DNA of 64,000 nucleotides from Acidithiobacillus sp. (lineage in GTDB: Bacteria; Pseudomonadota; Gammaproteobacteria; Acidithiobacillales; Acidithiobacillaceae). The stretch is taken from assembly GCA_050251535.1 (NCBI GenBank), contig JBFWMO010000003.1, positions 9,768 to 73,767 of the forward strand. The letters are read 5' to 3'. The first letter of the stretch is position 1, and each line of letters opens with the position of its first letter. The translations under genes were made by a program, and so were the position numbers. Below, one piece after another: positions 4,934 through 40,003 of this stretch. The notes beneath the pieces were generated by a model. That model was not told the DNA's origin. It worked only from the letters and a program-made list of their open reading frames with translations, and did not search any database.

Positions 4934-5117
4934 TTGCAAAGTAACCTGGCCGCGTGCGCGAACCTGCGGGAAGCCGTAGAACTCCGCAGGCGGCAACAGG
5001 ATTGGCCGCAGGTGCAACGGAGTGGCTATTTGCTGGACTTGCTCTGCTATTTTGCTCCGCAGCATAAGGGATTGTGCGTGACCGTGATAAAGAGCGGGGC
5101 AAGGGGCGTGATTTATG
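4934..5117 (+). pseudogene. deletion remnant of the 35049..36456 two-gene module
   Basis: 4975-5066 matches 35276-35361 (encoding ...WPQVQRSGYLLDLLCYFAPQH). It is joined directly to a copy of 36404-36459 (attgtgcgtgaccgtgataaagagcggggcaaggggcgtg.tttatgaaa). The junction lies at a shared GCAT. Confidence 0.65.
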
Positions 5118-5702
5118 AAACGAGAAGATATTGAAAAGTCATTCTCCCGGATTGGAGAGCTTGCGGACAGGCAGGGGATCATTGTCGATTTGGCGGTGTA
5201 TGGTGGTTCGGCAATGGCGTTACGATGGGAATTCCGCCGTTCCACAAGGGACGTGGATGTTATCATTTCTGGCGACAAATCTTTTATGAGAAAAGCCGTT
5301 TCTATGGTTGGCGAAGAAATGGGGCTGCCAGACAACTGGATGAACGATGCCGTAAAGGGTTTCTCTTCGTCCAACGCAGATCACGAGTTTTACAAGGAGT
5401 ATCTTGGCGAGAGCGGAGGGATCAGAGTGTTTGTTCCAAAAGCCGAATATCTTCTCGCCATGAAATGTATGGCGATGCGGCTGGATTCTCCTGACGGCCA
5501 TAACGACGCTGATGACATCAAGTCGCTAGTAGCTGTTGTCGGTGTGAAAAGCAAAAAAGATTTGTGTGATACGGTAGAGAGGTACTATCCTAGAGACAAA
5601 ATTCCGTCGAAAGTGTATTTTGGGATAGAACAAATCATGATCGAGGTGAACCTTGAGAACCGAAGAAAGCGCAAAAAATCTCCGCCCGAAAACTCTCTTT
5701 GA
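5115..5702 (+). CDS. nucleotidyltransferase-fold protein (MNT/DUF6036-like)
   Basis: The motif LAVYGGSAMALRWEFRRSTRDVDVI (GG-x-A...R-x-T/S-x-DVD) is typical of minimal NTases. The ATG overlaps the TGA of the upstream remnant. Confidence 0.65.
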   Translation: MKREDIEKSFSRIGELADRQGIIVDLAVYGGSAMALRWEFRRSTRDVDVIISGDKSFMRKAVSMVGEEMGLPDNWMNDAVKGFSSSNADHEFYKEYLGESGGIRVFVPKAEYLLAMKCMAMRLDSPDGHNDADDIKSLVAVVGVKSKKDLCDTVERYYPRDKIPSKVYFGIEQIMIEVNLENRRKRKKSPPENSL

Positions 5703-25476: not shown

Positions 25477-26691
25477 TTATGAGTTGACCGCGGTTATGAC
25501 CGGAACGTGCAGCAGCCGCCCCCACGCCTCGACAGAAGCGCGCTGAATAGCCGGGATATCGGTTCCTCGCGCCCACCAGTCGTTGGCCGGAGCCAACAGC
25601 GCTTGCGGGTGATGCCAGGCAAGCTGCAAACCTGGCAACATCAAAAGCTGCTCGTAGCAGACGAGGTAGCCAACGCGGGTCTGCCCAACCCGAGTCATTT
25701 CCGGCTTCCCAAACACGCGCATCCGGAAACTCCCACGCGGTTGCCATGGGTGCCACATAGAGAATGGCACCGGGATATGGTCGGGCAGGATTCGGGTGCG
25801 CCCGTCGCTGATCTGGACCATCGCATCGACGTAGCCGATCCCCTCTGGGACAAACGCACCAACAAAAACCGCCTGCTTGCGATGGGTAGCGGTCCAGTGG
25901 ATGACAGTCCGCCAGATCGCCTTGGTGCCAGCATACCACGGGCCGGCCACGGTCTCCGGCAGCAAAATCACTTTCGCGCCGTCACGCAACTTCTGCATCG
26001 TCTGGCGTTCCAGACGCATAGACGCCTGTACATAGGATAGCGGGGAGGACAGATGTCCGAACCTAGTGGACAGCCCCGTCCATTCATGCGGAGCGGGCAC
26101 TGGCGTCGGCGCACTGGCAAGCAGGATGGGCGGAAGCGTGAGCACAGCGAGGATTAGCCCGTCTTCAACAAATGCCGCCAAACAAATCGACGCCAGTGTC
26201 GCAAGAACGCCAGGCCAGCCGGAATTGAGGGCGCCAATCCATGGAGAAGTCCAGCCGATAATACCGAGAGGAGGCAGAATCGTGGACAAGGCCGAGAGGA
26301 TGAGCGTCGCAACCAGGGCAGCAGAAAGCCTGCCCAGGGCGCCGCGAAACCAGCGCGAGATGCGGTGATACAACAAATACGGCGCGGCAAAAACCATGGA
26401 CGACCCGAGCCAAAACAAGCCCCCGAGCAATAGCCCCGCTTTTGGAAAAAATACCGCCGTCCCGTGAATCAGCCCCCAAGTAGTCGCCAGATGGTATCCG
26501 AACATCAGCAGAAAAGGAGCCGACATCGGAGCGCGGGTATTCCCGAAAAACGGGATGGCAACCAGCGCCAATGGCGCCGCCCAGATGGCATGGGGCCAGG
26601 CAACCCAGCCAACGAGTGCCCCGAACAAAAGAGCTGCGAAATTCAATAGAGGGATCACCAAGTGTGCGGTTCGATTTTTCTCCCGCGTCAT
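25477..26691 (-). CDS. Lnt-like (apolipoprotein N-acyltransferase/CN-hydrolase) membrane protein, TraB-like
   Basis: Polytopic N-terminal half. The C-terminal half has VILLPE, HIPVPFSMW and LVCYEQ, which I read as a Glu/Lys/Cys CN-hydrolase pattern. Confidence 0.6.
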   Translation of the reverse strand: MTREKNRTAHLVIPLLNFAALLFGALVGWVAWPHAIWAAPLALVAIPFFGNTRAPMSAPFLLMFGYHLATTWGLIHGTAVFFPKAGLLLGGLFWLGSSMVFAAPYLLYHRISRWFRGALGRLSAALVATLILSALSTILPPLGIIGWTSPWIGALNSGWPGVLATLASICLAAFVEDGLILAVLTLPPILLASAPTPVPAPHEWTGLSTRFGHLSSPLSYVQASMRLERQTMQKLRDGAKVILLPETVAGPWYAGTKAIWRTVIHWTATHRKQAVFVGAFVPEGIGYVDAMVQISDGRTRILPDHIPVPFSMWHPWQPRGSFRMRVFGKPEMTRVGQTRVGYLVCYEQLLMLPGLQLAWHHPQALLAPANDWWARGTDIPAIQRASVEAWGRLLHVPVITAVNS

Positions 26692-27320
26692 ACATCATGC
26701 CCACACGCCCGGAAATCCTTGCCAAGCCTCTGCATGATTCTCTTTCCATGATCTGACCATTTTTCTCCGCCCGGCGAACTCCGATTCCAGGCCAGCGGTG
26801 AAGTGTGCGGCATAGCGTACAGGCGACATCTGCGAGGCCATGCCGCCCGCAGATCGACCCGGTACAGCAACGCAGCCGACACAGGATCGTAGTTGTGCGC
26901 TTCCAACAACGCCATGCTTGTTTCCAACCGGGCAATGCCCGTCAGTGCTGCCGTTGCCGTAGCGCCCACCGTCAAGACCGCCTCTGGACGCGCCAGCGCG
27001 ATGGTGGAGACCAGATGCGGCAAGCAGTTCACGATTTCCTTTTTGGTGGGCTTGCGATTGTCTGGCGGACGGCACCGAACCAGATTCGCGCAGCCATAGT
27101 CATAGCCACGGTGCAAGCCCTGTTCCTCCAACAGCCGGTGCAGCGTTTTGCCCGAAGTCCCGACAAAGCCCCGGCCCTGGTGGTCCTCGTGGACACCAGG
27201 CGCCTCGCCGATGACCAACAGCTTGCAAGTCCGCCCAAACTCCGGCACGTCGGGGTACACGATTCCCTCACGGCTGACGCAAAGGCTTGCGCATTTCCTG
27301 CACTCCGACATCAAGCCCAC
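26688..27320 (-). CDS. uracil-DNA glycosylase, family 4-like
   Basis: LLVIGEAPG motif A, FVGTSG, and HTSPLAW motif B. It has an N-terminal Cys cluster. Confidence 0.8.
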   Translation of the reverse strand: MGLMSECRKCASLCVSREGIVYPDVPEFGRTCKLLVIGEAPGVHEDHQGRGFVGTSGKTLHRLLEEQGLHRGYDYGCANLVRCRPPDNRKPTKKEIVNCLPHLVSTIALARPEAVLTVGATATAALTGIARLETSMALLEAHNYDPVSAALLYRVDLRAAWPRRCRLYAMPHTSPLAWNRSSPGGEKWSDHGKRIMQRLGKDFRACGHDV

Positions 27321-29458: not shown

Positions 29459-31492
29459 TCAAGACCGTGGTTCCCACTTCGTTCCTATCTTCTTTGCATC
29501 CTGCTTGTCAGTCCACCAGCAGGACTGGCAGGACTCGCACTTGAAAAACGGGCTTCCCTTCTTGGTTTTCAGTATGATGGTTGGTTTTTTGCAATCCGGG
29601 CAAGAAGGTCCAGAAGCCTTTGCTCCGCCACCGCCTTTTTTGCCTTTCCCTCCAGACGCTCTCGGAGCGCCGACGGTCAGAGACATCCCCTTAGCGGCCT
29701 CAAGCGCCTTGCCGACACGATTGCGCTGCGATGTCTCGAACTCTTCCAGTCCCAGCTTGCCTTCTGCAACCAGCGACAAAGCGTCTTCCCAGCGAGCGGT
29801 CAACACCGGGTCAGACAGGTTTTTTGGCAGCGCGTGAATCAATGCACGGCCCGCAGCAGTAGAAATCACCTGCTTGCTTTTTCGCTCGATGAATCCGCGA
29901 GTCAGCAAGGTTTCCAGGATGTTGGCTCGGGTGGCTTCCGTCCCAAGGCCGGAAGTCTCCTTGAGCTTCTTCTTGGCCTCCGGGTCTTCGACAAACTTGT
30001 GGATATTGCTCATAGCTTCGATCAGCGATCCATCCGTGAATCGCGCTGGGGGCTTGGTCTGCTTCGCCTGTACGTCCGCGTCCTTGACCGGCAAAGGCTG
30101 TCCCTTTTGCAGGGCAGGGATTGGCCCTGCATCTCCGTCCGCCTCTTCATCATCCGTCATGCCATAGACGGCCTTCCAGCCGGCTGACACCGGAATGTTG
30201 GCCGTGGCCTTCCAATCCTCTCCCGTGCAGATCAACAGCGCCTTGGTCGCCCGGAACACATACGGCGGATAGAACTGCGCCAGGTAACTGCGAACGATGA
30301 GTTCATACACCTTGGCAACCTGCGGGCTCATGCTGCCCTGCAACGATCCGGTCGGGATGATCGCATGGTGAGCCGTGACCTTGCCCGTGTTCCAGATAGC
30401 CGACTTCCGCTGGGCGTCCGCGCCCTTCGCGAGTTCCGCGAAGCCCTGTTTTGCGATACCTGCCAGCACACGGGCTGCTTCGCCGTGCTGCTCTTCCGGC
30501 AGATAACGGCAGTCGGTACGCGGATAGGTGGCCGCCTTGTGTTCCTCATAGAGCGCCTGAGCGGCGTCCAGCACCTGCTGCGCGCTCATGCCCAGCTTTG
30601 CGGAGCAAACCTTCTGCAACTCGGATAGCGAAAAACCCAAAGGTGCCTGCTGTTTCTTCTCCGTACTGCTGTAGTCTTTGACGGTGGCCGTCCCTGCCGC
30701 TTTTGCCTTTTTGGCGAGCTGTTCTGCTGCCATACGGTCTGTCAGGTAGCCCTCGCCATCCACTCCCGGAAAATCCTCGTGCAACTCCCAGACAGACCAG
30801 AAACCCGTCTGAATGCGGGGCACGAAAAAATCCTTGGGCTTGAAATTCTCGATCTTCTCATCACGCGCCACAACCAAGCCCAACGTCGGGGTCTGCACAC
30901 GGCCCACGGAGACAACACCGGAACCGCTATTGCGCAGCGTGTACGCCCGTGTGAGGTTCATACCCATCAGCCAGTCTGCCCGCGAGCGGGCTTTGGCTGC
31001 GTTGCAGAGTTTCTGGTACTCCCTATTATCCTTGAGATTCGCCAGTGCCTTCTTCACGCTCTGCTCATCGAGTGCAGCCAGCCAAATCCGCTGGGTCGGA
31101 CCTTTCCAGCCCAGCTCTTCCAATATCTCATCGACAAGCAACTGACCCTCGCGGTCGGGATCGCCTGCGTTGACCACGACACTCGCTTTCTTGAGCAAGT
31201 CCCGAATCACCTTGATCTGGGCCTTGGCGTCGTCCTTTGCCCGCAGTTTCCATTGCTCCGGGAAAATGGGTAGCTCCTCAAAACGCCATTTCTTTTTTCC
31301 CTTCGGGTTCAGCGGCACCGTATCCGGCGTATAAAAATCAGGCTCTTCCTGTTCAAAGACGTGGCCGAAAGCCCAAGTAATCACCGTACCTGAGCCACAC
31401 TGGATGAATCCTTTGCCCTTGCTTTTGCTGTCTGGCAGGTGCTCGGCAATGCCTTTCCCCAGACTGGGTTTTTCTGCGATGAAAAGTCTCAC
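29459..31492 (-). CDS. topB: DNA topoisomerase III with a C-terminal zinc ribbon
   Basis: GTG start after GAGAGGAGAAGG. Toprim N-terminus RLFIAEKPS. It also has GYLTDR... and RTDCRYLP, and a C-terminal CPDCKK...CESCQSC. Confidence 0.9.
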   Translation of the reverse strand: MRLFIAEKPSLGKGIAEHLPDSKSKGKGFIQCGSGTVITWAFGHVFEQEEPDFYTPDTVPLNPKGKKKWRFEELPIFPEQWKLRAKDDAKAQIKVIRDLLKKASVVVNAGDPDREGQLLVDEILEELGWKGPTQRIWLAALDEQSVKKALANLKDNREYQKLCNAAKARSRADWLMGMNLTRAYTLRNSGSGVVSVGRVQTPTLGLVVARDEKIENFKPKDFFVPRIQTGFWSVWELHEDFPGVDGEGYLTDRMAAEQLAKKAKAAGTATVKDYSSTEKKQQAPLGFSLSELQKVCSAKLGMSAQQVLDAAQALYEEHKAATYPRTDCRYLPEEQHGEAARVLAGIAKQGFAELAKGADAQRKSAIWNTGKVTAHHAIIPTGSLQGSMSPQVAKVYELIVRSYLAQFYPPYVFRATKALLICTGEDWKATANIPVSAGWKAVYGMTDDEEADGDAGPIPALQKGQPLPVKDADVQAKQTKPPARFTDGSLIEAMSNIHKFVEDPEAKKKLKETSGLGTEATRANILETLLTRGFIERKSKQVISTAAGRALIHALPKNLSDPVLTARWEDALSLVAEGKLGLEEFETSQRNRVGKALEAAKGMSLTVGAPRASGGKGKKGGGGAKASGPSCPDCKKPTIILKTKKGSPFFKCESCQSCWWTDKQDAKKIGTKWEPRS

Positions 31493-31516
31493 GACCTTCT
31501 CCTCTCTGTAGCCGCC

Positions 31517-31565
31517 GTCTACCCGGTAGACGGTCATGAGAGGGTATAGATCAGGAGCGGGCCAA
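31517..31565 (-). promoter_or_regulatory. promoter-operator module for topB (motif 31543-31565, palindrome 31517-31531 in the 5' UTR)
   Basis: On the minus strand it reads TTGGCCCGctccTGATCTATACCCtctcatgaccGTCTACCGGGTAGAC, then the RBS and GTG. Confidence 0.6.
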
Positions 31566-31930
31566 CTCACCCGGCATGAGTCTATATGGTGCGAGCCCTA
31601 TGCCCAGGATAGACTGATAGTCAAAACCCTACGTATGGCTAGGTGTTGACATGGAGCCGAAACCGTGTGCCTGTGAGCGAGAGCTATAATCCCGTGGGAG
31701 CGGAAAAGGCGATAATGTGTTGCTTATTTTGACACGCGAAAACAAGAAAAAAGCACTTCACATGAGCGCACTTCTTTGAGTTAAAATCATCGTAGCTGTT
31801 TTGGCGAACGGCAAATTTTGCGCGCCACCGCGCGTGGGTTTCTTTTGGAACTCTCATCGTCAAAGTTAATATAGTATGTTATTCTGGCGTGTTTTGATAA
31901 ATCACTATTTTAAATCAGAGGCTTTGAGTA

Positions 31931-32941
31931 ATGGTAATTATCCGATATGTTATGCATTTTGCCATGGTTGTTTGCCTCCTATTAGTCTCCGCGAGCGCTG
32001 CGTGGGCCAGTAATAAGTTTGCACATCCTCACGGCCCTGGTTATTTGGGCTTGCTTATTCCTGTAGGGCCTGCTCATTATGGTGTCATTTTTAAAAATTT
32101 TGTAAAAATAAAAGATGTTCGTATAGGGCATTTCAATTATCAAGTTGGTAATATCTATAATATTCCTGTGATCATCTGCATTCAGCCGTTTGGCGGAGAG
32201 TTTACGCGTGCCCTTACTGCACAAGTCATGGTTGATAATTTTGATATTAAGGCGCTGCTATATCCTGGTACGTCCGGTGCACACGTCCCGCCAGGCAAGA
32301 TGCATGTCGGAGACATTGTTGTAGGGACAAAGCAAGTAAACTTTGCAAATTTCTACATGTCACCAGCGGGTGTCATTGTTCCTGACGAGTTTTCTGGGAA
32401 GTCAAGCCTTAAGGACTATGAATATTTTTACCTGAATAGAAAGCTAGAAGAATATACTTCCTGTGCAGCAAAATATGTTGCTAACAGGGAGATTTTGCCT
32501 CACTGGCTAAATGGTAAGTTTAAATATAACAAGCCGGAAATATATTATTATGGAATTCAGGGAACATCTTCCATGTGGCTTGCTGACAAATCCTTCATTG
32601 CTAAAACAGATAAAGTGTTTCATGAGGTTGACGAGGATGGAGATTGGTATTCTGCTACTGTCGCTAAGATGGCCGATATTCCTTTTATTGAGGTTAGTAC
32701 GATATCTGATAGTGTGTATGAATTCAAAGGAAATGGTGTCCCTCCCCGTGGGAAGCATCAGAAGAGTGCGTCGGAAATCACGCAGAATATAAGCGATCTA
32801 ATAATGTTAAGAATTATCAAAATTTATGGCGAAGATCTCCTTGATAAGAAATATAATTATCCATCTGTAAATCCGTATCCGGCCTATTTTTATCAGACTC
32901 CGAAAGACCCGCATGGGTTACTTGTTGGTTGCAAAAATTAA
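31931..32941 (+). CDS. secreted PNP/MTA-nucleosidase-superfamily protein
   Basis: Signal peptide (VCLLLVSASAAWA-SN). Contains YPGTSGA, HVGDIVVG and EVDEDGDWYSATVAKMADIPFIEVSTISD. The gene and its 360-bp leader are strongly AT-rich. Confidence 0.55.
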   Translation: MVIIRYVMHFAMVVCLLLVSASAAWASNKFAHPHGPGYLGLLIPVGPAHYGVIFKNFVKIKDVRIGHFNYQVGNIYNIPVIICIQPFGGEFTRALTAQVMVDNFDIKALLYPGTSGAHVPPGKMHVGDIVVGTKQVNFANFYMSPAGVIVPDEFSGKSSLKDYEYFYLNRKLEEYTSCAAKYVANREILPHWLNGKFKYNKPEIYYYGIQGTSSMWLADKSFIAKTDKVFHEVDEDGDWYSATVAKMADIPFIEVSTISDSVYEFKGNGVPPRGKHQKSASEITQNISDLIMLRIIKIYGEDLLDKKYNYPSVNPYPAYFYQTPKDPHGLLVGCKN

Positions 32942-32946
32942 CCTGA

Positions 32947-33228
32947 TTAGCACGTTTTTTCAGTTGACCGGAGCCAGCGTTCTGACCGGGGTTCGGAGCT
33001 GACAGCGGCTCGGAGCAGGCTCGCAGGAAGATCCGCCAGGCGAAATCTGCGATTGAATCGGTACGCTACTGCTGAGAGGTAACGTTGGCCGTATTTGCTG
33101 AACTTGAATGCGTGGTAGGCACCGGAAACGCTGGTTTTGAGATTGCTAAGCAGTGTGTTGACCCAGAGAAATTGGGGCAGTTCTCGGGGCTTTCGGCCTG
33201 CCGCCACAATGACTTCGTGCAACGGCAT
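32947..33228 (-). pseudogene. IS1595-family (ISXO2-like) transposase C-terminal fragment
   Basis: Contains FLWVNTLLSNLKTSVSGAYHAFKFSKYGQRYLSAVAYRFNRRF. The N-terminal two thirds are absent. Confidence 0.6.
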
Positions 33229-35048: not shown

Positions 35049-35558
35049 ATGCTCTCTATTATGAAGCAGATGATGGTTGATCCTCATGGTCGCGACTCTG
35101 CCCTGACCGCTTTACACTACTTAGGTCAGCGAGAAGATCTGTCGACGGTCACACTGTTCTGGTTGTTGAGTAACCCTCAACCGGATATGGCTTTGCGCGA
35201 CCTGGAGCCACCACTCGGCTATTTTACGCGCCACGCCAATCCAGATCTGGAAGGCGCGGGGCTGCGAGACGCCTTGGAATTCAACCTGCGGCAACATGAC
35301 TGGCCTGCAGTCCAACGGGGAGGCTATTTGCTGGATTTGCTCTGCTATTTCGCTCCGCAGCATGACGAATGGCAGCATTCTTTGTTGCCATGGCTGGATG
35401 ACGTGGCAAACCGATTGCCTGAAGTCCCATTGTTGCCGTTTTTTCCCAGAGATTCACGGCACAATCCCATGGATGCCATGGCAGCTCGCTGGCATCTCTC
35501 ATCCGGGGTGCTCTACGACCGTCTCAAGCGGTTGTTGCGGCCGCCGTATGTCTGCTGA
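35049..35558 (+). CDS. hypothetical protein, upstream partner of the 35555 NTase
   Basis: 169 aa. A remnant copy lies at 4934-5066. Its stop overlaps the next ATG. Confidence 0.55.
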   Translation: MLSIMKQMMVDPHGRDSALTALHYLGQREDLSTVTLFWLLSNPQPDMALRDLEPPLGYFTRHANPDLEGAGLRDALEFNLRQHDWPAVQRGGYLLDLLCYFAPQHDEWQHSLLPWLDDVANRLPEVPLLPFFPRDSRHNPMDAMAARWHLSSGVLYDRLKRLLRPPYVC

Positions 35559-36456
35559 GTACCCGCACCTATACACCGAACGGCCCATCTTTCAGGCCGC
35601 ACGCGAGCTGATCCGGCAGACCGAATCCAGTATGAACGGTCATCTGGAAGAGCCGGTACGCCTTATCATGACGGGCGGTGCCGCCATGGCTCTGTATTCC
35701 CCGACCCGCAGTTCGGAGGACGTGGACGCTATTTTCTCCCACCGGATAGTTTTGCCAGAAGTGCTTATACCCTACGTGGATGAGCACGGACAGCGCTGCA
35801 CGCTGACTTGGGACCGCAATTACGCGCCGGTCATCGGCCTGATGCACCCGGACGCGGAGGAGGACGCCATCTTTGTGGCGCAGTCGCAGGATAAACAATT
35901 CGATATTCTGGTGCTTTCGTCGGTCGATCTGGCGGTATCCAAGCTGGGGCGATACGCTGACAATGACCAGAGGGATATTCAGGAACTTTACACCGAAAGG
36001 CTGATCACTCCGCAGGCACTGGAAACCCGCGCTGCAGCCGCTATGCGCTATTACGTGGGAAATTTGGGACAGGTTCACCACAACACCATAACCGCACTAC
36101 AAAACATGGGGTATCAGCCAACCATCCAGCCACCGCCTTCCAGATATATTCCCCCGGAACCCACACGCCTGAAACGCAACGACGCGCAGCGGCTGGCGGA
36201 AGGTGGAGGATCTGAGTTGCCAACGCATTGCCTGTCCAGAGGGCAGATTACTGGCATACTGATCAGCTTAAGTGAAGACCGTTCCGTGGCCTTCCTGAGC
36301 CCCGCACGGGACATGATCGCTGTCTACCGCAGTGATTATAACGCCATGCCAGAATTGTCCGCATTCAAGGGTAAATTGGTGACGATGCTCGAACAGGGGC
36401 ATAAACTGATTGTGCGTGACCGTGATAAAGAGCGGGGCAAGGGGCGTGGTTTATGA
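35555..36456 (+). CDS. nucleotidyltransferase-fold protein (DUF6036-like) with a ~110-aa C-terminal domain and an ERGKGRGL tail
   Basis: Internal ATG of ORF 35296..36456. It contains LIMTGGAAMALYSPTRSSEDVDAIF. Confidence 0.6.
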
Positions 36457-36775
36457 AAAAAAGTGTGGTTCCCAGCCTGCGGCCATGGCTTCACATAGAG
36501 CCTCGTCGGGAGATGACGAGTCCAGCGAACGACTGTTGTGCAGCGTTTGCAGTCATTCCGGTCCAATCTTGGAACGCATAATATGAACCAAGAAGCGGAC
36601 GTTCGGTTATGGCACCACGGATTACCGGAGTTCGGCCTTTGCTGCCACTGGGGGATAGAAGTTGGAAGGCTGGAATCGAACATTAACCGGCCATTCTGCA
36701 CGCAAATCACGCTGAGAACTATCCCATCACCTACGAATTTTATCTGGTCCTGGATAGCACAGCGAAGAAAATCAA

Positions 36776-38173
36776 CTAACTGATGTCTTGGATATCCAAT
36801 TCCAACTCCTTCGTTACTCGCCGAATTCTCTTAGCAAACTCCGATTGTATCGCTGCATCGTCCCAATCATTCAGATGTGCGATTCCAAAATAGTCAGAAA
36901 GAATAATTCTCTGTTGTTCAACTGAAGTTGTATCGAAGTTGGGAATATAGCTGTTGGCAGTCGGATTGCGACGTTTTGTCTCAAAGAATGTGCGCACGAA
37001 CGACTTGGCCTGACAATCGCTCGGTAGGTCAAATCGTTTAAGGAGATTACCCACCGTACGATCGAGTCTCCATAGCTGCTCCAAATGATCTTCGTCGATC
37101 TGGGAAAAATAGAAGACCCAACCCTTCCTTGCCCCCTCAAACAAACATCCAGTGACCCGTAAATTTAGCCGCCACATCAGTATATTGCGCGCAACATTAA
37201 ATTGGAATTGGCGAATATTTCTATTGAGTGCCTGAGAATTTATTTTCTGAATCTTATATTTATAAGTCGTGAATATATCGGCGAGAGAATCCTCCAAACG
37301 TTTTACAGACTCCATTTTCGCAAGACAGCGCTGATTGCGAAATTCATACCCGAGGAAATGGAATGTGTCACTGATAGGTCCGCAAGCAGTCTTTGTTCCG
37401 CCTAGTTTCAGCGGATAAGCATCAAGCTTGTGTTCATCCAGAAGGCGCGCACTCATCTCTTCCACTAAGGATGTGGCACCTGTTTTTGCGAGAACCAGAA
37501 TATCGTCAACGTATCGAAAATACTTTATATCTTTCCTGCTGATATAGTTATGGTCGAAGGGGGTCAAGTGAATCTCGGCAAGTATGTTAGAAACAGCGAG
37601 TCCTTGCGGAACGCCTTTCTTATTTGCGGCTGCCTCCTTGTTTGGAAAGGGAACCGTTGGAGTCTCAATCCCCGAGGTGAGCAGCTTTAGAAGATTCTCG
37701 TTCTGAATTTTCACCTTTATACGACTCAGGAGGATGTCATGACGAATCGACGGATAAAAATTCTGAATGTCGAGCTTGGCAAAAAATTCATATTCTCCGG
37801 TCTTAATAACTTCCTTTACCTCATGAATTATGGCCTGCGGAATATTACGTGACAGATCTGAAGCGAAAATCTTATTCAGTACGTTGCAAAGAGCGCGTAG
37901 TGCAATTCTATCTCGGAAGGTCGGAATAGAAATTTCTCTCGGATACCTCTTCGCTCCCTTTGAGATTAGTTTCTCTCTGTATTGTGAAAATCGGTATGTT
38001 CCAGAATTGGCTTTGCGATGCAGCACTTCTATATGACGGCAGAGTTGCTGCGTGAATTGCCTTTTGCCTAGTCGATCAATCCCGATAGCACTCGTTTGAG
38101 CGACATGCTTATGGTAGATATCAAGAAGATTTTCTTGGGAAAACTCTTGTGTGAACAGGTCGCCGGAATCCAT
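36776..38173 (-). CDS. reverse transcriptase (retron/Abi/UG-like, not intron-type by context)
   Basis: Motif A KLDIQNFYPSI, motif B GVPQGLAVSNILAEIHL, motif C YFRYVDDILVLA, motif E FHFLGYEF. It has a ~170-aa C-terminal extension. Confidence 0.9.
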   Translation of the reverse strand: MDSGDLFTQEFSQENLLDIYHKHVAQTSAIGIDRLGKRQFTQQLCRHIEVLHRKANSGTYRFSQYREKLISKGAKRYPREISIPTFRDRIALRALCNVLNKIFASDLSRNIPQAIIHEVKEVIKTGEYEFFAKLDIQNFYPSIRHDILLSRIKVKIQNENLLKLLTSGIETPTVPFPNKEAAANKKGVPQGLAVSNILAEIHLTPFDHNYISRKDIKYFRYVDDILVLAKTGATSLVEEMSARLLDEHKLDAYPLKLGGTKTACGPISDTFHFLGYEFRNQRCLAKMESVKRLEDSLADIFTTYKYKIQKINSQALNRNIRQFQFNVARNILMWRLNLRVTGCLFEGARKGWVFYFSQIDEDHLEQLWRLDRTVGNLLKRFDLPSDCQAKSFVRTFFETKRRNPTANSYIPNFDTTSVEQQRIILSDYFGIAHLNDWDDAAIQSEFAKRIRRVTKELELDIQDIS

Positions 38174-38174
38174 G

Positions 38175-38993
38175 TTAATTCATGGCAAATATCATGTAAC
38201 TATAGATTAAAACTGGGGATCCATATAGAAGCCACAGGCTCAGATAGCGACTGATAAAATAGCACCAGATATAAATGTAGTCCCAGCTTGTAAGTGTGCG
38301 TGACGTTCCCCTCCTTCCATATGGGAAGCGTGCGCAGCGATCATCCATGGCAGTGTGATTTTCGCTGTTCGCAATGGCCGTTCCATATTCCGCTTGAACG
38401 TACTCAATCACTTTCTGTAATTCTGCTGAGTCGGCTTGGCATTCTGCCACTTCAAGCTGGCCAAAAAGCTCCTGAAGGCGTGTGTAATTCTCTTTAAAGT
38501 GACGTGCCCTGGCGGGAAATCCTCTAGAGCTTATATAGAAAGAGAGTCCAAATAGGGTTATAGAGAGAATGATTCCAAAAACACCCGCAGCCTTGTCCGA
38601 TATTGGTTTGTATGCCAACTGTGTGACAGATAATGAAATGCTGTAGATGGCGTAAAACATCAAAAGCAACTGCGAGTGAAGTTCATTACGAAGTAACCTC
38701 TTCTCGGAGTAAATGCGGGCAATTCGTGTGAACCAAATTCGATCTTTGAGCTTATTTACTATATCAGTAAGGCACGGCATTTGGCATCCTTCCAACAAAG
38801 TTGAAAACTGGAGGAGGTGGACGGATAAATATCTAAGGATAAATTCCCCTAATAAAGCATGGCTTTTGGGGGACTGGTCGTAACGACCCACCAAGCTATG
38901 AAGACTTGGCGATTTAATACGTTCACCTCTTAATGGAGGTTCTGGTTGCCCAGCGTCCAACCCCATCCGAGGAACACTATACACGTACGACAT
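38175..38993 (-). CDS. SLATT-like multi-TM effector candidate
   Basis: 272 aa. Central TM pair LLLMFYAIYSISLSVTQLAY and GVFGIILSITLFGLSFYISS, preceded by IWFTRIARIYSEKRL. The C-terminus is hydrophobic. The stop lies 1 nt before the RT ATG. Confidence 0.6.
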   Translation of the reverse strand: MSYVYSVPRMGLDAGQPEPPLRGERIKSPSLHSLVGRYDQSPKSHALLGEFILRYLSVHLLQFSTLLEGCQMPCLTDIVNKLKDRIWFTRIARIYSEKRLLRNELHSQLLLMFYAIYSISLSVTQLAYKPISDKAAGVFGIILSITLFGLSFYISSRGFPARARHFKENYTRLQELFGQLEVAECQADSAELQKVIEYVQAEYGTAIANSENHTAMDDRCARFPYGRRGTSRTLTSWDYIYIWCYFISRYLSLWLLYGSPVLIYSYMIFAMN

Positions 38994-39589
38994 GAATCAA
39001 AGAAGGCCTTGGCGCTACGATCATCTCCTCGCATTCAAGTGCGCCCTCTGACATTCGAGGACGCTCCGCGACCAACGTCCGTTAACTGCGCGGGTGTTGA
39101 CGTTCGTTCGGCGCATACTACATAACCGGATTGGCCGAACTCCGGGCGCCGACGATGCCCACCTTGAATGACTGCTTTGGGTCATTTGCTTTCCGCTGCT
39201 GAACGACCGCAATCAGTCTGGACCTGCCATTGGAGGCGTAGACCTGATCCAGGTTGCGCGATCGGCCTTGCGGCTTGCGATTGGATGATTGTGCCCCGGA
39301 CGTTCTGGTCGCAGGCGTAGTCCTTTCCTCGTTGGGGCTCAGACGGCGCACTCCCACTGAGATCTGCGTCCACCATGCGGCACAGCACGCGCCTGCACTC
39401 CCAGCCACAGGCGTAGTTGCGGCGGATGCAGTACACAGCAAAGCCTGCCGGGGACTACTCGCCGGAGCAATGCTCTCCAGGCGAGCAGCGCCGGTGTAAT
39501 TTTGGTGTAATCTGGTGCAATTTACAGGCTGTTGATGCTGGTAAAAACCCTTATTTATTGGGCTATTCATGACGTTCACATGCCTTCAC

Positions 39590-39629
39590 ACGGCAGGGGT
39601 CACAAGTTCGAACCTTGTACCGCCCACCA
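39590..39629 (+). other. 3' fragment of a tRNA gene (T-arm, acceptor 3' strand and CCA); candidate att repeat marking the ICE end
   Basis: ACAAG-TTCGAAC-CTTGT T-arm, then ACCGCCC, A and CCA. The upstream sequence cannot form the 5' acceptor, D or anticodon arms. Confidence 0.6.
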
Positions 39630-39842
39630 ACAAAAACAACGGGTGAGATTGTATCCTTCCGATTTCTTCCATAGGGCAAAGGCCGATTCGAGGGCTTTGC
39701 TTTGTGCCTCGATTCGCAGGTGCATATAGCGTTCTGTCATTCGCATGGTGCTATCTCCGAGAATGTGGCTGAAAAATCGGCTAATGCGTGATTGTTATCG
39801 CGCCGGCATGAGCGTGACGTAGCCTTCTAAGAGAGTTTTTAC

Positions 39843-40003
39843 CGGAAATCCATGCTGATGGCCTGAAGATTGTGGGCGTTTAGACAGCGCGGCAGCACCT
39901 TCAGCTGCGTGCGCCGGCGGTTGAGAAACACGAAGAGCTGGCCGCTGGTCTCCTGTTCATCGATCAATCTTTGCCAGTCGCTCTGGCTGCGTCGCGGGTT
40001 CAT
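39843..40003 (-). pseudogene. IS66-family accessory-gene remnant (orfA N-terminus fused to a TnpB-like segment)
   Basis: My own translation is MNPRRSQSDWQRLIDEQETSGQ-LFVFLNRRRTQLKVL... The two parts resemble IS66 TnpA and TnpB signatures. Confidence 0.45.

Follow-up and report, generated by a model that had tools for sequence, protein, structure and literature searches.

DRT10 systems are the closest described relatives of the locus reported here. The pairing of a UG17 reverse transcriptase (RT) with a SLATT membrane protein was described by Mestre et al. 2022 (PMC9226505), and three later studies, Tang et al. 2025 (PMC12632851), Sanchez-Nieto et al. 2026 (10.64898/2026.04.29.721553) and Ramirez et al. 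2026 (10.64898/2026.06.29.735271), characterised the resulting systems as DRT10. As set out in these studies, DRT10 consists of a noncoding RNA (ncRNA), SLATT and an RT, and makes protein-primed cDNA composed of tandem repeats. In the predominant layout, SLATT (about 186 aa) is tightly coupled to the RT gene that follows it, and the ncRNA, a structured RNA of about 135-160 nt, lies directly upstream of SLATT. The RNA of Eco1DRT10 is pseudo-symmetric, with stem-loops SL1 to SL3, Loop A, SL4 to SL6 and Loop B, while arginine R371 is essential for the stem-loop boundary in Eco3. RNA models of DRT10 are reported to work within sub-lineages only. Here we analyse an AT-rich islet in a 64,000-nt stretch of Acidithiobacillus sp. 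DNA (contig JBFWMO010000003.1 of assembly GCA_050251535.1; the window). We are highly confident that the islet carries an intact three-part DRT10 anti-phage system (UG17, class 2 UG/Abi), composed of an ncRNA of about 160 nt, a 201-aa SLATT_5 protein and a 465-aa RT.

Overview of the locus

The islet has a GC content of 42-45% over approximately 36750-39000, compared with 55-61% in both flanks. It contains two minus-strand genes, of which the second (RT) starts 1 nt after the stop codon of the first (junction TAA-c-ATG) (Table 1). Both the AT-rich block and the coupled gene pair had been recognised in a first-pass annotation of this DNA, which also proposed a DRT-type defence module with a SLATT effector. 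Profile searches bore out this proposal, since RVT_1, SLATT_5, the PADLOC model RT_UG17 (6.3e-149) and the PADLOC model of RT-associated SLATT (RTasSLATT, 4e-46) were all matched. The same annotation considered a possibly undescribed subtype, a suggestion overtaken by the description of UG17 with SLATT in 2022 and its characterisation as DRT10 in 2025-26; the system in the window is a fairly divergent member of DRT10 and not an undescribed subtype. The effector-first gene order, previously regarded as a departure from known layouts, is the predominant DRT10 arrangement, and the apparent anomalies of layout arose because the ncRNA gene had been read as protein. The lack of an msr/msd-type repeat is not an anomaly either, because DRT10 uses a different, multi-stem-loop RNA. 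The module thus belongs to a defence system that is already catalogued and whose mechanism has been characterised.

Table 1 Coordinates of the features of the DRT10 locus in the window.
Feature	Position	Strand	Details
RT gene	36776..38173	(-)	465 aa; open reading frame list
SLATT_5-family membrane effector gene	38175..38780	(-)	201 aa from M72 (ATG 38780)
Open reading frame over SLATT in the first-pass annotation	38175..38993	(-)	272 aa; open reading frame list
DRT10 ncRNA, structured core (5' and 3' ends approximate)	38810..38968	(-)	~159 nt; covariance models, fold, covariation
SL1, 5' strand (basal stem)	38968-38954	(-)	
SL2	38953-38942	(-)	
SL3	38940-38925	(-)	
Loop A	38924-38912	(-)	13 nt; GAACGUAUUAAAU
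SL4	38911-38889	(-)	
SL5	38888-38876	(-)	
SL6	38873-38845	(-)	
Loop B, template loop 3' of SL6	38844-38824	(-)	21 nt; AUUUAUCCUUAGAUAUUUAUC
SL1, 3' strand	38823-38810	(-)	
-10-like box TATAGT, putative ncRNA promoter	38976..38981	(-)	~8 nt upstream of the basal stem
13-nt inverted repeat, downstream arm	36625..36637	.	CCGGAGTTCGGCC / GGCCGAACTCCGG pair
13-nt inverted repeat, upstream arm	39133..39145	.	same pair as 36625..36637

Reverse transcriptase

The PADLOC model RT_UG17 matched the RT with 494.5 bits, aligning residues 2-465 to positions 2-429 of the 429-position profile. The runner-up among the defence RT models of PADLOC was Drt3a (1.1e-34). The named DRT models other than RT_UG17 reached at most 118.7 bits and a generic RT model 142.5 bits, Drt9 and Drt2 giving E-values of 2e-15 and 7e-19, respectively. 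The match to Pfam RVT_1 had an E-value of 7.6e-22. By these profile scores, the RT is a member of UG17 within the class 2 UG/Abi RTs.

Residues important for DRT10 function in the characterised systems have counterparts in the RT. The YVDD motif occupies residues 221-224 (37513-37502), and Y221, V222, D223 and D224 are all invariant among the homologs. R380 is also invariant and is aligned to R371 of a 456-aa homolog that we used as a numbering proxy for Eco3, which indicates that R380 is the equivalent of the template-boundary arginine. R394, at a position where a basic residue is conserved, aligns to K385 of the same homolog. The RT terminates in Ser465 (36781-36779); of 28 homologs, 27 have Ser at this position and one has Tyr. 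In an AF2 model of the RT (pLDDT 89.4, pTM 0.81), a helix spans residues 439-464 and a low-confidence, flexible tail residues 463-465. The C-terminal helix with a flexible Ser465 fits the priming geometry of DRT10, and Ser465 is likely the protein primer.

A PDB sequence search and Foldseek with the RT returned generic bacterial RTs only, the nearest solved folds being RTs of a group II intron, G2L4, DGR, DRT9 and DRT2. As the PDB copy searched contained no DRT10 structure, these fold neighbours are uninformative. At the sequence level, the RT is 100% identical to a protein of an Acidithiobacillus sp. metagenome-assembled genome and 92% identical to that of A. ferrivorans.

SLATT gene and its start codon

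The partner protein matched Pfam SLATT_5 (1.2e-29, residues 80-264) and NCBIfam SLATT_5 (1.1e-37). All the SLATT profile matches, including RTasSLATT, were confined to residues ~78-265 of the 272-aa open reading frame (ORF), and residues 1-77 were covered by no profile in the Pfam, NCBIfam and PADLOC scans. Because the published SLATT is about 186 aa long and the profile matches start at about residue 78, we tested the coding status of the first 71 codons. M72 is preceded by a Shine-Dalgarno sequence, GGAAGGA, at 38793-38787, and M1 (ATG 38993) has none. In relatives whose RTs are 74-85% identical to that of the window, the SLATT genes were independently called at 201-202 aa, in exact agreement with a start at M72. 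An in-frame stop codon lies upstream of the M72 equivalent in every relative examined, and only one or two codons upstream of it in L083 and L085 (L numbers denote the loci fetched for comparison). In addition, ATG 38993 is located upstream of the conserved -10-like box. GC by codon position was uninformative for these 71 codons. Taken together, the profile limits, the Shine-Dalgarno sequence and the stop codons indicate that SLATT starts at M72 and that the upstream 71 codons are non-coding.

The first-pass annotation had correctly paired a SLATT-like protein with an RT that has the YVDD motif. The soluble N-terminus of about 100 aa that it described falls away, as the first 71 codons overlie a covarying structured RNA and contain stops in the relatives. 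The hydrophobic C-terminus that it considered extra lies inside the SLATT_5 profile match. A hydropathy profile of the 201-aa SLATT has transmembrane helices at about residues 38-56 and 64-84 and a hydrophobic C-terminus at residues 180-200. The same SLATT gene is annotated twice at NCBI, as 272 aa (MGE4269186.1) and as 201 aa (MGE0047689.1). The 272-aa annotation swallows the putative promoter and the ncRNA. An RNA gene was thus hidden in an over-extended ORF, and gene callers can mask DRT10 ncRNAs in this way.

Noncoding RNA gene

The DNA upstream of M72 is strongly conserved in close relatives, where it differs by indels of 1-2 nt and by stem-preserving changes. The first-pass annotation had reported no obvious msr/msd-type inverted repeat next to either gene; an RNA gene is nevertheless present, inside the 272-aa ORF (Table 1). 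The RNAalifold consensus consists of a basal stem around five stem-loops and two single-stranded loops. The window sequence folds with a minimum free energy of -60.3 kcal/mol (z = -4.09), and none of 200 shuffled sequences was as stable. A covariance model (R1) built from six close sequences matched the window at 38808-38970 and 13 further loci. An iterated model (R2), searched against 90 sources with 665 kb in total, matched 42 loci including the window, all on the same strand and directly upstream of SLATT, and had no match anywhere else in the 665 kb. These loci include those of Cupriavidus, Chromobacterium, Burkholderia, Bordetella, Pseudomonas, Buttiauxella, Photorhabdus and Xenorhabdus, and R2 links the window RNA to enterobacterial loci with Eco3-like templates. 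The window RNA scored 128-176 bits against R1 and R2.

Base pairs in this region covary. Changes on both sides were found in 32 of the 43 pairs in the R1 set and in all 40 modelled pairs in the R2 set. Paired cells amounted to 96-97% in the R1 and R2 alignments versus 40-54% in slid controls (96% versus 46-52% for R2 alone), with the caveat that these alignments were themselves fitted to the model. The RNA, as modelled, matches the published DRT10 layout, in which a basal stem is combined with five stem-loops and with Loops A and B. At the position of the TATAGT box, TATAGT or TATAAT is present in all five close relatives with available upstream sequence (L082, L083, L085, L086 and L087), and the box is a putative promoter of an independently transcribed ncRNA. 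The result is a six-stem-loop model of the RNA with matches in 42 loci, along with a testable prediction of the repeat.

Loop A, Loop B and the predicted cDNA repeat

Loop A is 13 nt long in 38 of 39 distinct relatives and 12 nt in the remaining one. It has a conserved core, G..CUAAUAA-like, and is more conserved than the template Loop B. Across these 39 relatives, Loop A contains no A-B-A' repeats, in which A' is a downstream copy of A (mean best repeat, 2.51 nt). By its position, Loop A corresponds to the second template site in the structures of Ramirez et al. 2026 (10.64898/2026.06.29.735271), which is non-repetitive and is occupied by the second of the two RT monomers. In published DRT10 work, Loop A gives short abortive products only.

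Loop B of the window can be read in two registers, which start 0-3 nt after SL6. In the 10-nt register, a 5' linker AUU is followed by the template UAUCCUUAGA (38841-38832), A' (UAU, 38831-38829) and a 3' linker UUAUC, A and A' being the 3-nt UAU. In the 14-nt register, A (AUUUAUCC, 38844-38837) and A' (AUUUAUCC, 38830-38823) flank B (UUAGAU). The 8-nt repeat of the latter arose in 127 of 100,000 composition-matched shuffles. Among the 39 distinct relatives, the mean best A in Loop B was 4.08 nt versus 3.44 nt in shuffles, a value reached by none of 500 shuffled sets. In the geometry that recurs across the family, the 5' linker measures 2-3 nt, the unit 9-11 nt, A' 3-5 nt and the 3' linker 4-5 nt, and the corresponding lengths given for Eco3 are 2, 9, 4 and 4 nt (PMC12632851; Ramirez et al. 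2026). The enterobacterial loci matched by R2 have templates of the form CAAU...CAAU, resembling that of Eco3. In the 10-nt register, A' of the window begins 8 nt before SL1, where Eco3 primes. We predict a cDNA repeat of (TCTAAGGATA)n in the 10-nt register, which is consistent with the family, or of (ATCTAAGGATAAAT)n in the 14-nt register.

The second of these predictions could apply to an Acidithiobacillus/Gallionella sub-clade in which an 8-nt A/A' and a 14-nt period running into the basal stem, with no 3' linker, give a 14-nt repeat or a mixture of 10-nt and 14-nt repeats. We consider this possible but rather doubtful. Natural DRT10 units are stated as 7-9 nt in the literature consulted, in which no unit of 14 nt was found, and removal of the 3' linker is reported to have abolished synthesis in Eco3 (Ramirez et al. 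2026; PMC12632851). If true, the 14-nt register would break the linker-length rule derived from Eco3DRT10. The ambiguity between 10 and 14 nt lends itself to testing, in a natural system, the 'geometric window' model of how a telomerase-like bacterial RT defines its template.

Comparison with characterised systems

We compared the window with Eco3DRT10-type systems through the published description and the 456-aa homolog rather than the Eco3 sequence itself. Both have the order ncRNA, SLATT and RT, an extreme C-terminal Ser after a conserved helix, the invariant boundary arginine, and an RNA in which a basal stem and small stem-loops are combined with Loop A (12-13 nt) and an A-B-A'-bearing Loop B (19-21 nt). 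The differences lie in the RT (465 aa in the window versus 456 aa, and approximately 40-42% identical to the enterobacterial homologs of 456-457 aa), the number of RNA stem-loops (six in the window, five in Eco3), the template sequence, the unit (10 or 14 nt predicted in the window, 9 nt in Eco3) and the host, Acidithiobacillus.

An Eco1-type locus of E. coli (L097, NZ_CP039404) was identified by the published AATCGTGT repeat. Its Loop B holds ACACGAUU-AC, which corresponds to this repeat in reverse complement together with its 2-nt A'. L097 shares with the window the layout, the gene coupling and six stem-loops in the order SL1-SL2-SL3-LoopA-SL4-SL5-SL6-LoopB. The two RTs are 40% identical over their full length, whereas identity between the SLATT proteins is only 27%. 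Priming in Eco1 uses a terminal Tyr (Y444), and the Eco1 RT is missing a stretch of about 17 aa that the window RT has at residues 305-325. L097 is situated in a P4-like satellite beside an integrase and tRNA-Arg, whereas the cassette of the window has no adjacent integrase. The neighbours of L097 in the fetched region (NZ_CP039404.1, 1-7117) are a DUF927 protein, an ogr/Delta zinc-finger protein, a pseudogenised tyrosine integrase and tRNA-Arg. A blastn search with the islet as query gave no match in complete E. coli genomes; the islet DNA is too divergent for blastn, and the link to E. coli was therefore made through a Dryocola locus. The window thus adds a divergent DRT10, with an RT about 40% identical to those of the E. 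coli systems, from an acidophilic chemolithotroph.

The UG17-A system of Escherichia sp. E3659 (10.64898/2026.04.29.721553) also has a tightly coupled SLATT-RT pair in a Pseudomonadota host. As in the window, its ncRNA is just upstream of SLATT; it is 143 nt long with six stem-loops, a basal SL1 and its own promoter. Its repeat is 7 nt and its SLATT 186 aa, unlike those of the window, and the core of the E3659 probe was absent from all the loci fetched. The SLATT-RT order and the host phylum of the window would be compatible with UG17-A. More distantly, DRT9 (UG28) and DRT2 (UG2) share with the window system repetitive cDNA templated by an ncRNA, with protein priming in DRT9, and are fold neighbours of the AF2 model. 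Their products, however, are poly-dA (DRT9) and a 120-nt rolling-circle gene (DRT2), and SLATT is accessory or absent there.

Proposed mode of action

The analysis shows the three components in their order, the structure of the RNA with its A-B-A' pattern, the catalytic residues, the boundary residue and the primer geometry at the C-terminus of the RT, while RNA transcription, cDNA synthesis and defence activity would follow by analogy with the characterised E. coli systems. In this scheme, the ncRNA would be transcribed constitutively, and the pseudo-symmetric RNA would scaffold two RT monomers. The monomer on Loop B may prime from the hydroxyl group of the C-terminal Ser465, copy a short template beginning just 3' of SL6 and halt at the stem-loop boundary. 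The nascent cDNA would then re-anneal to the downstream A' copy, and repeated cycles would generate a long single-stranded tandem-repeat DNA attached to the RT. This cDNA may be made constitutively and restrained by a host single-stranded DNA (ssDNA) exonuclease. Perturbation of ssDNA metabolism by a phage could alter the level or state of the cDNA and thereby activate SLATT, aborting the infection, with the host exonuclease and phage proteins resembling single-stranded DNA-binding protein setting the threshold of the SLATT trigger.

Alternative explanations

Several observations weigh against an intact DRT10 system in the window. The exact Eco3 template (CAATGATTCCAAT) is absent from all the fetched loci. 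R1, even with filters off, misses the Eco1-type RNA in L097, in agreement with the published finding that RNA models work within sub-lineages only. Rfam 15 gave no match for the RNA at the gathering threshold or at E<=1, the published DRT10 models being outside Rfam 15. A consensus sigma-70 scan revealed no canonical -35 element at 16-18 nt and no canonical promoter for the RNA, and a consensus scan found no intrinsic terminator for it. The aromatic residue that contacts SL1 (Y388 in the 456-aa homolog) is Phe in the window RT, in which F397 is aligned to this position. The template register is ambiguous, as the homology is longer in the 14-nt register but no 3' linker is left there. The system resides in an acidophile. 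Finally, the close relative A. ferrivorans holds a decayed copy, suggesting that this lineage can lose the system. Some of these points would also suit a DRT10-family relic that is inactive or decaying in this genome and possibly no longer expressed or protective, for which the A. ferrivorans copy (92% identical, with the ncRNA and the first half of SLATT missing), the undetected canonical promoter and terminator, and the mosaic character of the region around the islet, which contains an integrase remnant and a tRNA fragment, can be cited. However, both ORFs are intact in the window, the invariant RT residues including YVDD, R380 and the terminal Ser are kept, all the RNA stems are retained with 128-176 bits against the models, and the -10 box and the SLATT Shine-Dalgarno sequence are conserved. 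We therefore regard a relic as unlikely.

The remaining alternatives concern the identity of the components and are less probable still. A 272-aa SLATT whose soluble N-terminal domain is lineage-specific and possibly encoded by the same DNA as the RNA would be a new architectural variant, and the frame is indeed open from ATG 38993 in the window genome and is recorded at 272 aa in one NCBI entry. The in-frame stops in all the relatives examined, including those with RTs 74-85% identical, and the 1-2-nt indels within the region make this very improbable, as do the good Shine-Dalgarno sequence at M72 and its lack at M1, the location of ATG 38993 upstream of the conserved -10 box, the position of residues 1-77 outside every profile, the evolution of the region by compensatory base-pair changes and the second NCBI entry of 201 aa. 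Least probable of all, and hardly credible, is that the RT belongs to a retron, a group II intron or another UG class 2 system (DRT2, DRT3 or DRT9) and stands beside SLATT by chance. Weak cross-matches to the group II RT/maturase (133.9 bits), Drt3a (1e-30), Drt2 and retron RT models, as well as the nearest solved folds named above, point in that direction, but the NCBIfam scores are far below the curated cut-offs (133.9 against 300, 107 against 200, 64 against 390 and 49 against 235) and the lead of RT_UG17 over the other named DRT models and the generic RT model in PADLOC is large (494.5 bits versus at most 118.7 and 142.5). In addition, no Rfam family was found at E<=1 in 36300-40000, and the RNA architecture and the A-B-A' loop are of the DRT10 type. 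Individually, a retron was rejected on the retron_St85 RT score (49 bits; cut-off 235), the lack of a match to any retron RNA family and the different RNA architecture, and a group II intron on the TIGR04416 score (133.9 bits; cut-off 300) and the lack of an intron RNA at E<=1 in 36300-40000.

Extent of the cassette and its relatives

As a unit, the cassette is also present in unrelated genomic settings, for example in Gallionella and in metagenomes, and the homology to these copies spans from 39000-39113 down to 36631-36775. From these boundaries, the mobile unit comprises the RNA, SLATT and the RT only. A scan of metagenomes with the RT added just two close relatives. Among the relatives, L083 and L084 have an integrase that converges on the RT, which the cassette of the window does not have, and tblastn searches with the integrases flanking the relatives' cassettes detected no integrase remnant downstream of the RT.

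The cassette is bracketed by a perfect 13-nt inverted repeat (Table 1), present in two copies in the 64 kb versus 0.12 expected by chance. Its arms mark the outer limit of the islet. The repeat was not found around the cassettes of relatives, except for one arm in A. ferrivorans. It was rejected as a terminal repeat of the cassette, since the relatives lack it and the cassette homology ends inside the arms; it may be a split palindromic target site.

In A. ferrivorans (LT841305.1; L081, 3456-5565), a copy that is 92-94% identical lacks the ncRNA and the 5' half of SLATT. Its upstream flank joins mid-SLATT ('YKPISDKAAG...'), the window equivalents of the two sides being 39132 and 38621, and an IS66 TnpB gene is located nearby. 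Judged from this structure, the A. ferrivorans RT is an orphan of a system decaying in that species.

Neighbouring features

At the left edge of the islet, homology to a paralogous module at 5.1 kb stops at 36458, as the first-pass annotation had stated. The paralogous segments are 36408-36458 versus 5070-5120 (98%) and 35254-35363 versus 4956-5065 (81%), and they are split by about 1 kb of extra sequence in the copy at 35-36 kb. The ORF at 35296-36456 encodes a DUF6036 nucleotidyltransferase domain (4.8e-10) and has no PADLOC match.

On the other side, the tRNA fragment that had been described as abutting the block is a 3' half (GGGGTCACAAGTTCGAACCTTGTACCGCCCACCA) at 39596-39632 (+), about 600 bp from the DRT10 RNA. 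ARAGORN and Rfam, at the gathering threshold or E<=1, called no tRNA or other RNA family near the islet. An ORF fragment at 39600-39746 (-) has an integrase-like start, 'MTERYMHL', near 39720-39746. Together, the tRNA 3' half and the integrase-like fragment probably represent a former att site or the end of an island.

Another AT-rich islet, with a GC content of 40-42%, at approximately 31500-33000 may be separate acquired cargo. It contains a 336-aa ORF (31931-32941, +) with a weak N-terminal match to PNP_UDP_1 of the phosphorylase superfamily (2.7e-7) and no PADLOC match. Further away, a Toprim/Topoisom_bac topoisomerase (29459-31570, -; 1.5e-115), which cross-matches DpdF of PADLOC, and a UDG-superfamily protein (26688-27320, -) are encoded, and these two genes look like those typical of integrative elements.

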